Part shown: one piece after another, positions 47,291 to 64,000 of the stretch
Layout of the letters: every line of letters begins with the position of its first letter
Numbering within the stretch: position 1 is the first letter of the stretch
Assembly (NCBI GenBank): GCA_964016885.1
Contig: OZ024756.1
Location: 15,438,001-15,502,000, forward strand
Direction of reading: 5' to 3'
Length of the DNA stretch: 64,000 bases
Source of the DNA: Eledone cirrhosa
Lineage: Eukaryota
The notes under the pieces: model-generated
What the model saw: the letters and a program-made list of their open reading frames with translations, nothing else
Databases searched by the model: none
Told to the model about the DNA's origin: nothing
Translations under genes and position numbers: made by a program

Positions 47291-50076
47291 TAGATTTCTA
47301 ATTGGACAGAATGATAAGGAAACATTAAGCTATCCACAAATGCACATGGTTGCCTATTCAGACCACAAATTAGTCACCTGCATAGTCAACCTTGATAGAA
47401 CTCATAGACAGGGACCCGGATACTGGAAGCTAAACATATTTCTCCCGGCGCGTAAGGCCTACAGTAAACAGATTAGCAACTTAGTTAAGAGCCAGTTGAC
47501 GGGGGCCATCGTCAACAACAGGTGGTGGAGCTCTCTCAAGAGAGCAATTAGAATAGAATCGATAGCATTTAGCAAGGAAGTAGCTTTAGAAAAGAACAAA
47601 ACTGGAAAAGAACTTGTAGTTAAAGTAGAAGAGGCATTAGGAATGGCTGTACAGCTGACGTGTTAGCGGCGAGAACGGCACTGGACCAGTTCTTCAACGT
47701 GAAACACGAAGGTTGTATTGTCAGAAGTAGAACATGTGCTCTAAGAAACGAGGAAGCCAAAGCTATTAGCTGGGCCCGAGTGGCAGAGACGAAAAGTAGC
47801 AACAAATCCATAATTCGATCTTTGCAAGGCAAAGATGGACGCATTCTACTTGAATCCAAGCCGATGTGCACGGCCTTCCAGCAGCACTTTGCACAACAGT
47901 TCAGGCAAAGCGGTACGTCGAGCGAGGTGATGGACTTCAGTTCCTACCTCGACGGCCTACCACGACTCTCGAGTACGGATGCAGAAAGCTGCGAAAGACC
48001 GATCACAGCGGGCGAAATAGAAGATGCTCTAGGCCGCTGCGGGAAATGCAAATCCCCCGGTTTAGATGGTGTACCCTATGAGTTTTACATAGGCATGCCA
48101 GACTTTTTCTTTGGCGTCCTCGAAGCGGTCTATTGCAACTGGCAGCCGAACGGGAGGATTCCCAGTTCTGTAGGCAGAGGCGTAGTAATGCTTATCAGGA
48201 AAGATGAGAACAAAGGGATGAGATAAGCAATTTCAGGCCCATAACTCTGCTCAACACAGAGTTAATGATTTGGGCCAAGGTGTTAGAAACGAGGCTGGTG
48301 TTTGTCGTCGAGAACCTGGTAGGGGAAGCGTAAACTTGTGCAATCCCGACCAGGTCCATATACGACAACCTCATGTGATACATCATAGAGAGGGTTGGGT
48401 GTAAACCTGGCTTCGGTGGGGCTCTGATCAATTTAGATCAATCTAAGGCATTTGATAAGGTCGACCATCAATATTTGGAAGTTGTTCTCAGCGCGGCCGG
48501 CTTCAGTCCCGTCTTCAGAGGCTGGATCGCTGCCATGCACACCAGCATCTGCTCGGCAGTCAAGGTAAATGGCTACCTATCGGAGCCATTCCAAATCATG
48601 TGTTCCAGCCGTCAGGGATGCCCTATCTCATCCATTCTGTATGTACTGACTCTAGAGCCATTACTTCGGAAGTTGGAGCTGTTGCAGGGTATCCCGGTCG
48701 AACTAGGACTGCGGAAAGCAGCGTCGGCCTATGCCGACGACGTAACCGTAATGGCGTCGAAAACCTCGGAAGTCGGGCTAATCGGCAACCTATTACAAGA
48801 ATACGAAACGTTGACAGGAGCAACACTAAACCCAAACGAGTCTGTCGGTTTACAACTCGGCACATAGAGAAGCAAACCCATGCCTTCCGACAGCGTCGTT
48901 GGACGCTGGACGGAAGGACCGGTGAAATTGCTCGGGATCTGGTTTGGTCCGTGGCTGATGATGCGTAAACACGCGCTGAGGCTACGCCATCTCCAGTTAT
49001 TCCTAACCGGCGAACCGGTGTGCATGTCGTTTGTGAGACGAGCTCTTCCACAACTCGTCTCGCTAACAGAGTTGCAGTCCTGGATCAAGAGAAGACCGAA
49101 AATGGGTGCCTGGCACCTCGAGTGCCTTCAGGCGCTCACAGCCTTCTACCAAGCGGAAACGGCAATTAGCAGAGACTCCACTTCGACATTCTATATGGGG
49201 ATTAGTGGAGGATAAGTGCGACGACATTCTCGGGGAAACTCTAGGCATCGAGGAAGACGAACTGACCAGTCTGTTCGGGAGGACTTTCCCTCCAGGGCCT
49301 ATGGATAACTTCCAGAGGTCTCTGCCCTGGCAGTGCTACAGAGGAGCTTCACCAGTTCGAGACAAAATCTACAGGCACAGACGCCCTGGCAGAGATCCTG
49401 CCAAAAGGACCTGTCCAAGATGCGAGCAAGACATTGAAACCGTCCTGCACGCAATTGTTCAGTGCTCAGGGGTGACCGACCTGTGGAATTATGTCGAGCA
49501 GCTACTGTCACGTGTGGGACGCATGCAGGTGCCAGCCGAGTCCATCGTGAGGATCACGCCGCCGCCTTCATTTAAGAATGAAGGAGAAGCGGTTTTACTT
49601 TGTCTCGTGGCTATGACGAAAGAGGTAATATGGTGGACGAGGTTAAAAGGACTGAGGGCAAACATCTTTCTCTCCAGACAACAACTCATCCCCTTCTTTA
49701 AGTACCACTTCAGAAGGAAGGTGAGAGTGGAGAGAGAGGTGCTACACCCCAGTAAATTCGTTGAAAGGTGGGTGAACGTGGCGAAAATGGCTCGAGTGAA
49801 TGGGCCTTCTCTGTATATAAACCTGTAGGTTGAGGAAGACAAACAGAGGGAAGACGGGAACACCTACAAAACGTGTTCCTGGTGTTGAGGGTTGTTCTAT
49901 CCACGTGGTGTAAAACAACCCTGCAGTAACGTTCCCTCCTATTGGGGATTTCGATTATTTTATTTTTTATAAATTCTATTGTTATCCATTATTATTGTCA
50001 AAGATTTTATGTAAAACCCCCGCCGTCACGTCTTGTAATGTCCCATTTTTGTACGCCCTTGTGGCAAATAAAGAAA
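47291..50076 (+). mobile_element. 5'-truncated, disrupted Tx1/L1-clade LINE (APE C-terminus, RT, zinc knuckle)
   Basis: SDHKLV, GPGYWKLN, KSPGLDGVPYEFY, NFRPITLLNTE, LDQSKAFDKVDH, QGCPIS, AYADDVT, CPRC...ETVLHAIVQC; stop at 49828; AATAAA at 50067; (TATC)n on both sides; several frameshifts and stops. Confidence 0.95.
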
Positions 50077-50959: not shown

Positions 50960-51030
50960 TATTTTATTATGCGCATTTCAAAAACAAATATCATCATGCA
51001 ATAATATTTGTGTTTTCATCAGATAAAATA
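50960..51030 (-). ncRNA. Type I hammerhead ribozyme
   Basis: UAUUUUAU-CUGAUGA-helix II-GAAA-UGCGCA-UA-AUAAAAUA. Confidence 0.8.
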
Positions 51031-51138
51031 GGAAGACATGATATGAAGGTTAAAAAACACTTGTGGATAGTGCAGTTGATATGTTGATTTAAAACTGCAC
51101 TATCCACAAGTGTTTTTAACCTTCATATCATGTCCTCC

Positions 51139-51209
51139 TATTTTATCTGATGAAAACACAAATGTTATTGCATGATGATATTTGTTTTTGAAATACGCAT
51201 AATAAAATA
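51139..51209 (+). ncRNA. Type I hammerhead ribozyme (mirror copy, helix III UACGCA)
   Basis: CTGATGA 51147-51153; GAAA 51190-51193; ATA site; one substitution breaks the palindrome. Confidence 0.7.
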
Positions 51210-51896: not shown

Positions 51897-51950
<54 letters not shown>

Positions 51951-51958
<8 letters not shown>

Positions 51959-52545
51959 CGTAAAATAAGAAAATTTTAAAAAATTAACTTACTTACTAAA
52001 GTTTTCACTCCAACTAATTAGTTTCTGCAATGGGATAAAGACAGTTACGTAATAAACTGTCGAGAATTCATTGCGTCATCAGGGAGTCTATTCTCAGCTA
52101 AGTCTCCAGGCAATGCGCGGTCACTGGGGACTCATATAAAAATAATAATAATTCGGTAAATGGAACAGCTAGCGGGGACTGGATTCCATGCACTGAAAAT
52201 CTCGCTGTCACTGGTCAAATGGCAGATTCTAAAGAATCAATCACGTGACACAGAGGCTAGTCGGTAGGAGTGGGATGGTAAGATGACAGAAGCCTACTAA
52301 CACACCAATAAATTAGTAGTGGTTTTGGCAGGTTTGCTCGACAAATAAGTAATTTGGAGATAAATATAGAAAATTTAGTATATCTACTAACATATGCGTA
52401 CAGATGTACGCTAATACTAGCAAATACACAGGTTATGTCATAGTACCTAGGTGGTTCAATGCAGGAGGATGCAGAACAATAATATAAAAGACGTAAAATA
52501 AGAAAATTTTAAAAAATTAACTTACTTACTAAAATTTTCACTCCA
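51951..52545 (-). mobile_element. Retrozyme-like element: 533-bp monomer plus a ~62-bp terminal direct repeat
   Basis: Direct repeats 51951-52012 and 52484-52545; hammerhead at 52007-52087; 3' end in (TA)n. Confidence 0.8.
52007..52087 (-). ncRNA. Type I hammerhead ribozyme
   Basis: ACUCC-CUGAUGA-C-GCAAUG...GACAGUU/AACUGUC...CAUUGC-A-GAAA-CUAAUUAG-UU-GGAGU; palindromic helix III; GUU site. Confidence 0.8.
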
Positions 52546-52561
52546 GTATCGAGTACTCTGG

Positions 52562-52630
<69 letters not shown>

Positions 52631-52633
<3 letters not shown>

Positions 52634-52780
52634 CAAAGAGGGTGTGGTAAGATACCAGATGGACCATAACGCACCAGAGTACTCGATACTTAGAGTAGTA
52701 GAGTGGGTAATATGAAAAAATTCAGGACCCCGACGGCTGAGCTCCGGCCGTTTCGACAGCTAGATTTCGACAGCTAGATC
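52631..52780 (-). mobile_element. Family A copy just upstream of the Barx acceptor
   Basis: GGACCATAACGCACCAGAGTACTCGATAC...GACCCCGACGGCTGAGCTCCGGCCGTTTCGAC. Confidence 0.8.
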
Positions 52781-52786
52781 AGCTGA

Positions 52787-53450
<664 letters not shown>

Positions 53451-53488
53451 TTAGAGTAGTGAACGCTGCAAATTGGCAGAATGGTAAA

Positions 53489-54440
53489 TTCCCCGACCAC
53501 ACCATCGATCTATACCGCGACGACGGTCTTTCTTTGGCCTATGACTGCAGTAGGCAAACTCTGGGTAGGTCCTGTAAGGATCTGATAGACACATTTAGCA
53601 TGTCAGGACATAAGATCACAGTAGACACTAACCTCACTAGCGCAGACTTTCTTGATGTCAAGCTAGACCGATCAACAGGTACACATAAACTGAATGAGGG
53701 GCTGAAATATACTAACGGAGGATCCTGCCACCCACCTACAGTTTTTAAAAATCTGATATCCGACATTAGCCGTAAAATCTCTAACCTATCATCTAGTAGA
53801 GTAACATTTGAGAAGGTAACACCTCCGAGATAGTGGATTCAGGGAACAGATCAAATACATGCCTAATAGACCCCCACCTAAAAATAAAAATAGAGAAAGA
53901 AAAATAATCTGGTTCGCTCCTCCTTTCTCACTAAATATAAAGACTAATGTAGGTAAGAAATTCTTAGACCTAATGGATAAGCACTTCACCCAACAACATT
54001 GATACAGTAAAATCGACGTTCGGTGAGAATATCCTGCTCTTGCGCACCACCAGGAAGAAAGACAACTGTCCATTACAACTGTAATGTAAAGTCCATAATA
54101 TACGAGGCAGAGATCAAACACACAAACACCAGCTAGTCAGAAACCCGTGAAAATGTGTAATTACGGTCCATGACCGATTTAAGCAAAGGTTCTACTTTTA
54201 CAACTCCTCATTTACGCATCCCGACATGAAAACCACCACAGTGCTGACAAAAAGGAGTACTGCACGATATTACATGGAAAGTGTTCGAAAAGTCCACGCC
54301 GTAAAAAAACGGAACGAAGAGATGCCCGCTCTGCCTCGCCGAGAAATTTAGGATCTTGCAGGGTTTATACTCACTGGACACATACCTAAACTCCAAGACT
54401 TTAGACTTTATTTGCATCAGAAAGCCCATCTCTTATCCAA
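53489..54440 (+). mobile_element. Decayed Penelope-like retroelement (RT C-terminal half, thumb, GIY-YIG endonuclease)
   Basis: [92 protein letters not shown]; frameshifts and stops present. Confidence 0.85.
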
Positions 54441-62130: not shown

Positions 62131-62304
62131 CGAACAGGCACACATACACTCACACAAACATACACTTATAAAAACACAGACACAGACATACATTCATACA
62201 AACACACACACAGTTTCACCAACGAACAGACACACATACACTCACGCATACACTCACACAAACTCATAAAAAACACACAGACATACATGCATACAAACAC
62301 ACAC

Positions 62305-64000
62305 ATGTGCCAAGTTGCAAACCAACAGACTTGTTTGGCTTTAGTCTTGCTCCTGTCAACGTTTCGTATTCCTGTAATAGGTTGCCGATTACCCCGATTT
62401 CCGAGGTTTTCGACACCATTACTGTCACGTCGTCGGCATTGGTCGACGCTGCTTTCCGCAGTCCTGGTTCGATCAGGATGCCCTGCCACAACTCCAACTT
62501 CCGCATTAATGGCTCGAGAGTCAGTACATACCAGAATTGAGGAGAGAGGACATCCCTGTCGGATGGAACGCATGATTTGGAATGGCTCCGATAGGCAGCC
62601 ATTCACCTTGACTGCCGAGCAGATGCTGGTGTGCATGGCAGCGATCCAGCCTCTGAAGACAGGACCGAAGCCGGCCGCCTTGAGAACCGCTTCCAAGTAT
62701 TGATGGTCGACTCTATCAAATGCCTTAGACTGATCTAAATTGATCAGAGCCCCACCGAAGCCAGGTTTACACCCAACCCTCTCTATGATGTATCGCATGA
62801 AGTGGAGGTTGTCGTGTATGGATCTGGTCGGGATTGCACAAGTTTACGCTTCCCCTACCAGGTTCTCGACGACAAGCACCAGCCTCGTTTCTAACACCTT
62901 GGCCCAAATCATTAACTCTGTGTTGAGCAGAGTTATGGGCCTGAAATTGCTTATCTCATCCCTTTGTTCTCATCTTTCCTGATAAGCATTACTACGCCTC
63001 TGCCTACAGAACTAGGAATCCTCCCGTTCTGCTGCCGTTTGCAGTAGACTGCTTCGAGGACGCCAGAGAACAAGTCTGGCATGCCTATGTAAAACTCATA
63101 GGGTACACCATCTAAACCGGGTGATTTGCGTTTCCCACAGCGGCCTAGAGCATCTTCTATTTCGCCCGCTGTGATCGGCCTTTCGCAGCTCTCTGCATCC
63201 GTGCTCGAGAGTCGTGGTAGGCCGTCGAGGTAGGAACTGAAATCCATCACCTCGCTCGACGTACCGCTTTGCCTGAACAGTTGTGCAAAGTGCTGCTGGA
63301 AGGCCGTGTACATCTATTTGGATTCAAGTAGAATGCGTCCATCTTTGTCTTGCAAAGACCGAATTATGGATTTGTTGCTAATTTTCGCCTCTGCCACTCG
63401 GGCCCAGCTAATAGCTTTGGCTCCCTCGTTTCTTAGAGCACGTGTTCTACTTCTGACAATACAACCTTCGTGTTTCACGTTGACGAACTGATCTAGTCCT
63501 GTTCTCGCCGCTAACACGTTAGCTGTACAGCCATTCCTAAGTGCCTCTTCTACTTTAGCTACCAGTTCCTTTTCAGTTTTGTTTTTTCCTAAAGCTGCTT
63601 CCTTGCTAAATGCTATCGATTCTATTCTAATTGCTCTCTTGAGAGAGCTCCACCACATGTTGTTGACGACGGCCCCCGTCAGCTGGCTCTTAACTAAGGT
63701 GCTAATCCGTTTACTGTAGGCCTTACGCACCGGGAGCGACATGTTTAGCTTCCAGTATCCGGGTCCCTGACTATGAGTTCTATCAAGGTTGACTATGCAG
63801 GTGACTAATTTGTGATATGAATAGGAAACCATGTGCATTTGTCGACAGCTTAATGTTTCCTTATCCTTCTGTCCAATTAGAAATCTATCTAAATACGATC
63901 TAGAAGACCCAGTGTGGTCGCTCCATGTCCACAATGGTGCACACGGGAAGTCTAGTCGATATCTATCAGCCAGCTGGAATTGGGTGATGAGATTTTTTAG
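62305..64000 (-). mobile_element. Disrupted Tx1/L1-clade LINE (APE and RT), runs off the window
   Basis: WTWSDHTGSSRSYLDRFLI, GPGYWKLN, LDQSKAFDRVDH, QGCPLS, NADDVT; highly similar to 47291-48868 in inverted orientation. Confidence 0.95.

Follow-up and report, generated by a model that had tools for sequence, protein, structure and literature searches.

Non-LTR retrozymes of animals, as far as the accessible text of the two closest sources describes them (PMC7229834; 10.64898/2026.07.22.740005), are non-coding tandem elements with one type I hammerhead per unit, a GC content below 45-50% and no LTR; they occur in thousands of copies, from monomers to multimers, in genomes that also hold Penelope-like elements (PLEs). 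They are known as RNA, and their mobilization by PLEs has so far been argued from co-occurrence and sequence trees. For PLEs themselves, a tail on one of the inverted ends and TA targeting have been reported (PMC8557442, PMC3846280), and a PLE studied in vitro, predicted to be a dimer, extends both strands, primes in the absence of homology, works on uncut RNA and initiates at two internal positions, by which the tail is defined (PMC11167929). In the accessible parts of these sources the one-ended tail, TA targeting, internal initiation and a circle model are already in print for PLEs, and the origin of inverted arms and tails is named as an open task (PMC8557442).

The family described here was met through one copy in the window, the whole 64-kb stretch of DNA that was analysed out of a 3.0-Gb genome (contig positions 15438001-15502000). 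Judged by its sequence, it is a non-LTR retrozyme whose copies number in the thousands and sit in (TA)n runs: the units stand head to tail as dimers to multimers, are low in GC, non-coding and free of LTRs, each carry a type I hammerhead recognized by motif and compensatory changes, and co-occur with autonomous PLEs. At 525-594 nt the unit is longer than the RNAs reported by Cervera & de la Pena 2020 (170-400 nt; PMC7229834) and falls inside the range that Li et al. 2026 give (51-972 bp; 10.64898/2026.07.22.740005), according to the available portions of both. This family, described from genomic DNA, showed no pLTR homology, and it has fixed two-site ends and head-to-head arms, of which we found no description in the accessible text on animal non-LTR retrozymes. 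Plant-type LTR retrozymes carry a type III hammerhead in LTRs and have a 4-bp target-site duplication (TSD), in contrast to the type I hammerhead, tandem units and TA targets seen here. With EN+ PLEs, in what is accessible of PMC8557442, PMC3846280 and PMC11167929, the family shares partial tandems, an inverted 5′-truncated arm, TA targets, an optional 3′ tail on one end and two internal starts downstream of the hammerhead cut. It differs from them in the missing ORF, in a tail of ~115-125 nt (30-40 in PLEs), in TA microhomology at both starts, whereas the anole PLE primes without homology (PMC11167929), and in the addition of (TC)n at one start. The value lies in the family-wide end pattern and not in the focal locus.

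The focal copy and its surroundings

Positions within the element are given as q and counted along the minus strand, with q1 at window position 52544 and q533 at 52012. The locus contains the following features:

51900-51948, no strand: (TA)n target, 3′ end of the element
51949-52011, minus strand: terminal repeat q1-q63, its end being the putative priming site A (UAUAU also part of the TA run)
52007-52087, minus strand: minimal type I hammerhead with stem I, CUGAUGA, C.A mismatch, extended helix II, GAAAC and palindromic 3-bp helix III, from motif and covariation
52012-52544, minus strand: 533-nt retrozyme monomer between successive cut sites (q1-q533), structured and without coding capacity, from sequence, fold and genome matches
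52357-52372, minus strand: internal site B (q173-188), second family-wide 3′ end, read through in the focal copy
52545-52562, plus strand: filler of 18 nt at the 5′ junction, matching 52673-52690 exactly in inverted orientation
52563-52632, no strand: (TA)35, 5′ side of the target
52633-52790, minus strand: neighbouring copy of another TA-ended repeat family, outside the element, likely donor of the filler
52838-53125, plus strand: BarH/Barx-type homeobox exon on the strand opposite to the element, from homeodomain frame and database match

The monomer (533 nt, GC 37%) lies on the minus strand and starts exactly at the predicted cut of the type I hammerhead. A sequence-only reading of this DNA had described an insert that starts within 1 nt of the predicted cut, runs 533 nt to the next hammerhead and closes with a redundancy of about 61 nt ending in (TA)n, and in these points the sequence and blastn agree with it. 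The direct repeat (52545-52482 against 52012-51949) is 63-64 nt long with one mismatch, its last 5 nt (TATAT) being common to the repeat and the (TA)n run; blastn returned it as 62 nt at 98.4% (E 2e-25). The monomer folded better than 100 of 100 shuffles (z = -5.9). Across the trimer at locus L004 the longest stop-free frame spans 97 codons, and the element lacks the RT and GIY-YIG ORF of an autonomous PLE.

One feature was absent from the earlier reading, namely the inverted 18-nt copy at the 5′ junction (52545-52562 = 52673-52690) followed by (TA)35. This filler was likely templated from local DNA during joining, and its sequence variant is that of 2 of the 28 distinct contexts of the flank repeat family. 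Taken on its own, the focal locus is ordinary and gives no demonstration of a circle.

The homeodomain frame from the ATG at 52838 had its best match in Homeobox protein BarH-like 1 (PDB 2DMT, E 8e-33), which we take to be Barx. The element had been placed upstream of a Barx exon, and a homeodomain of BarH/Barx type was confirmed; the retrozyme lies ~290 nt before its ATG, antisense to the homeobox frame.

Family size and sampling

A search of the genome with the monomer gave at least 142 matches from the best 40 of 1,988 candidates. Exact 24-mers occurred 1,506 times for q1-24 and 5,680 times for the junction, while both controls gave 0. Arms were taken from 33 top-hit young loci, from the loci of the first 100 listed q1-24 matches (L031-L114) and from 40 stretches among the first 100 listed matches to the junction 24-mer. 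After 13 fragments were dropped by hand (neighbouring insertions, one segmental duplicate and short pieces), 247 arms remained, or 245 without L114, a duplicate of L021 that was left out of the end and pair counts; junction-crossing counts and 5′-junction comparisons also exclude L111. Periodicity in other copies had been set as a test, and it is conserved at 525-594 nt, with tandem multimers of up to six units (six junctions in one arm at L097). In four sequencing runs, two of DNA and two of unspecified kind, the family was present, with no locus-specific signal and none that bears on circles.

The hammerhead

The motif is made up of stem I (ACUCC/GGAGU), CUGAUGA (52082-52076), helix II (GCAAUG/CAUUGC) and the 3′ part GAAAC-UAAUUA-GUU with a palindromic helix III of 3 bp, and the predicted cut falls at 52012|52011. 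Helix II opens with a C.A mismatch in 206 of 218 pattern-picked motifs. Across 24 copies 96.5% of cells were paired, compared with 30-48% when the partners were slid; because related sequences can inflate this control, we gave more weight to compensatory changes, and two-sided changes were found in four pairs, three of them among the six pairs of helix II. The hammerhead junction is not a chance product, as its 24 nt had 5,680 exact matches in the genome against 0 for the reversed control. The earlier claim of a complete hammerhead thus stands on all motif parts and the compensatory changes, even though the C.A pair is non-canonical and Rfam at gathering scores gave 0 matches across the whole 64-kb window. 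A motif that appears complete but is non-canonical in this pair does not guarantee cleavage activity; 8 of 9 predicted Xenopus retrozyme dimers failed to cleave, according to the available part of 10.64898/2026.07.22.740005.

Compared with the minimal PLE hammerheads in the accessible text of PMC4209133, the motif has the same short palindromic (dimer-dependent) helix III, 6-bp helix II, extra base after position 9 and covariation within families. It differs from them in an extra A before GAAA, by which helix II opens with the conserved C.A pair, and in a loop II that is a long second helix.

Two fixed 3′ ends and head-to-head pairs

The 3′ ends of arms fall at two places, A (~q58-63) and B (~q173-188), which we scored leniently as q20-88 and q165-210. 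TA followed 111 of 117 A ends and all 118 B ends, and ten further arms end elsewhere. Among 91 head-to-head pairs, 80 combine an A with a B end, two are A+A, none is B+B and nine have an unclassed end, so that 80 of the 82 classifiable pairs are A+B; in both A+A pairs one arm is, by eye, broken within the poly-T tract. Pattern-picked loci alone gave A+B in 64 of 65 classifiable pairs (binomial p 4e-18). The family thus has a tail (two 3′ ends), an inverted 5′-truncated arm and a (TA)n target, the features of PLE-mobilized sequence.

As arms end at two fixed sites, the redundancy of ~61 nt reflects a fixed start and not a free overshoot. It had been read as the overshoot of slightly more than one round, which gives way to a fixed internal start at A with a second site at B. 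Of what had been looked for in other copies, tandem multimers are present, but in place of variable redundancy lengths there are two fixed sites.

The two arms of head-to-head copies belong to the same subfamily, with the divergence threshold exceeded in only 2 of 65 pairs. No difference between arms was seen at 452 sites in L029 and 454 in L192, for which the nearest other loci differ by 1.1% and 0.7%, respectively; gene conversion or assembly could have contributed to these zero values. Twin priming and 3′ slippage in LINEs are analogies.

Added (TC)4-34 was found at 52 of 118 B ends, and four or more TC units at 0 of 117 A ends. Four TC units were seen at 0 of 123 read-through B sites, as scored with a pattern blind to inserts longer than 14 nt. 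The (TC)n at B would have arisen by realignment during priming, and later slippage beside the TA run may be another source. In a literature search with most subscription journals beyond reach, we found neither retrozymes in head-to-head arrangement nor the addition of repeats at the starts of PLEs described.

A collision of two cDNAs on one circle was considered and rejected, as stops at the start of the other arm were near expectation (A arms at q166-195, 6 with 4.9 expected; B arms at q31-68, 13 with 11.7 expected).

5′ ends and the predicted cut

The 5′ ends are variable, with a mean stop rate of ~0.002 per nt. The junction was crossed by 211 of 233 arms, and twice or more by 66, one of the sample sets having been picked for holding the junction. 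An exact start at the cut was found in 8 of 237 arms, against 286 junction read-throughs. By eye, six of these starts are among the 50 arms of the top-hit young set (L001, the focal copy, L003, L011, L016, L026 and L154) and two among the 187 pattern-picked arms (L082 and L194), where 1.4 were expected and there is no enrichment. Leaving out the focal copy, 5 of 49 young arms stop exactly at the cut, compared with ~0.6 expected (p 4e-4). Automatic assignment to q1-3 had given 9 of 50 top-hit and 3 of 187 other arms, before L004, L014, L018 and L087, which retain 3-9 nt before the cut, were removed from the exact-cut set by eye. Other excesses of 5′ ends in pattern-picked arms, at q4-30 (30 vs 13) and q490-512 (21 vs 10), are not evidence on the cut site, because AT-rich or palindromic zones favour microhomology joins.

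In young copies the exact start at the cut is genuine though rare, and it marks an RNA end. On a closed circle this position is not an end, so a start there points to a cleaved RNA end, linear or nicked, and its earlier interpretation as the footprint of a circle was not borne out.

Just after the cut, an A-to-C change at q9 is seen in one unit each of L002, L004, L011, L012, L016, L023 and L026, whose subfamily backgrounds differ. This position may be a site of recurrent error or modification.

Units within a locus

Units in the same direction differ within a locus by 2.3% (131 pairs, 70 loci), and between loci by 10% for the median and 2.0% for the nearest other locus; units of one locus are therefore no closer to each other than to the nearest other locus. 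Twelve locus-private variants are uniform over all units that cover them and 192 are not; the uniform ones span up to three units and both arms. Mixture within a locus was seen in 630 of 2,065 cases for variants present in at least five loci and in 352 of 394 for those in two to four, probably owing to recurrent mutation. By eye, the 16 near-matching pairs of 5′ junctions among 243 arms proved offset or of different subfamilies, with no clear sign that parental flanks were carried along with the element.

The within-locus pattern would fit repeated copying of one monomer, whether through a circle or through precise jumps from end to end. Precise read-through and near-identical units suggest a circle at the level of the family and are no proof of a covalent one. 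What survives of the proposed ribozyme-processed circular template is a retrozyme-like element with circle-like read-through elsewhere in the family; the redundancy and cut start of the focal copy are not circle evidence.

A candidate Penelope-like helper

A PLE-like family of the same genome gave 7,230 candidates, of which the best 150 were scored and showed 94-100% identity. An intact copy has an ORF of 1,229 codons with YVDD, a CX4CX2C linker and a C-terminal VVY-YIG nuclease. A Pfam search of this ORF named no family, and RT, GIY-YIG and HTH_animal families were present in its atlas neighbours. By layout it agrees with the account of Neptune in the accessible text of PMC8557442. Copies of this Neptune-like PLE (L129, L126, L125 and L135) are young and abundant, with a period of 4,073 bp, intact ORFs of ~1,200 codons and an Asn/Thr-rich insert. 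Its hammerhead is minimal with a helix III of two base pairs, and it has two TA-followed ends, 167 and 227 nt after the cut (a 60-nt tail), one per arm in L125, L126 and L135.

Comparing the retrozyme with 11 stretches holding this PLE, one of several PLE families, gave no blastn match at E 0.01, so pLTR homology does not mark it as a derivative of the Neptune-like PLE, and among the sampled copies listed none was seen by eye to run from its own hammerhead into an ORF. At L006/L138 a retrozyme A arm stands head-to-head with a PLE arm whose end, followed by (TA)n, is at the long site; the PLE arm is 95% identical to its nearest copies and the retrozyme arm 98% to the copy in the window. With L012 and L096, three retrozyme-PLE joints occur in the sampled loci. 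All three could be nested insertions, which explain L096 at least as well. The Neptune-like PLE is a candidate helper on this evidence from sequence comparison, and other PLE-like fragments are also found in the genome.

Such RT and GIY-YIG fragments lie in the window at 53369-53830 (plus strand), just after the homeobox exon, and at L139:3518-4162 and L140:5915-7686.

Proposed mechanism and alternatives

The reading that we favour, and regard as probable, is that the focal element is a young non-LTR retrozyme copy, with a unit of ~530-590 nt, made by a Penelope-like enzyme through a fixed internal start, one crossing of the junction and run-off at a cut RNA end. Tandem transcripts would be cut by hammerhead dimers into monomers, most of which would be ligated to circles. 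A PLE protein, probably as a dimer, would nick both strands of a (TA)n run, and UAU-type microhomology would let one of the two 3′ ends prime at A and the other at B, where priming would often stutter on CUCU. Each cDNA would then round the junction until drop-off, and the two would join each other, giving a head-to-head copy, or the target, giving a single arm as in the focal copy. There, priming at A would have been followed by one crossing of the junction and a stop at a free 5′ end at the cut, offered by either a nicked circle or a dimer cut in part; 18 nt copied from the flank would then have patched the joint.

A more specific version, which we put forward tentatively, is that a PLE dimer grips one circular RNA asymmetrically, primes both nicked (TA)n strands simultaneously, one invariably at A and the other at B, adds short repeats at B by telomerase-like realignment and then rolls round the circle, and that it can co-load its own RNA, as at L006. 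If this is true, the retrozyme family would read out the PLE integration complex without any protein of its own. The footprints that this non-coding passenger carries can be counted: a short and a long end in 80 of 82 pairs, arms that share one template type, and repeats added at one start only. Two start sites are mapped on the putative 533-nt RNA and the genome also holds an intact candidate enzyme, which allows a direct in vitro test.

A covalently closed 533-nt circle, copied for slightly more than one round and with the start at the cut as its footprint, would account for the precise read-through of the junction in 286 cases, the multimers and the near-identical units, and circles have been shown for coral, mussel and axolotl retrozymes (accessible text of PMC7229834). 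Such a circle gives no reason to stop at q1, however, where ~0.002 stops per nt amount to ~0.6% per pass for a 3-nt window, and a fixed start site determines the redundancy; we consider this account improbable. Nor does it seem likely that circles played no part and that the templates were partly cut linear oligomers, or linear monomers jumped end to end. The exact stops at the cut in young copies speak for such templates, as does the finding that a PLE in vitro mainly uses uncut RNA (PMC11167929, in its accessible part), but they are only 8 against 286 read-throughs, the near-matching 5′ junction pairs betray no clear parental flanks, and some private variants are uniform over up to three units and both arms.

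Arrays formed at the DNA level, by tandem duplication or unequal exchange, with inverted arms arising by self-priming and not by two-ended priming on RNA, appear very unlikely to us. DNA-level amplification and self-priming have each been proposed, in the accessible parts of 10.64898/2026.07.22.740005 and PMC3846280, respectively, and units 1 and 2 of L004 resemble each other more closely than either resembles unit 3; this leaves unexplained, however, why ends followed by TA fall at two fixed sites and are divided one to each arm in 80 of 82 pairs, why (TC)n is confined to B ends and why dispersed copies vary in their 5′ ends. That the 64-nt direct repeat flanking the focal copy is a fixed LTR or TSD, which would have spoken against the sequence-only reading, is refuted, and we give it next to no credence: the repeat is internal sequence of the element, 5′ ends vary, multimers occur and flanks differ between loci.

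Other repeats

The element had also been called the second and larger of two retrozyme-like families, rightly so, as a 310-bp hammerhead tandem lies in the same window at 126-1207 (plus strand). This tandem has its own minimal hammerhead with T.T opening helix II and ends in (TA)n; its TA-followed matches end at ~139 and ~163-170 of the query, hinting at two ends. Another family with a CUGAUGA...GAAA motif forms head-to-head pairs beside TA runs at window positions 7154-7293 and 51022-51147, and two more hammerhead tandem families with periods of ~467 and 465 bp were seen at L136:966-1900 (minus strand), L140:3319-4225 and L127:1223-1432. A small TA-ended family is present in the window at 9660-9860, 13370-13520, 23800-24040, 25570-25700, 27230-27380 and 52633-52790; the copies read consist of a short inverted arm and a longer arm, the short end lying at an internal TAT, in the same two-end layout. 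Finally, two related broken copies, oriented oppositely and matching at 95% over 736 nt, lie at 47624-49825 (plus strand) and 62169-64000 (minus strand), and from their motifs we take them to be LINE-like.
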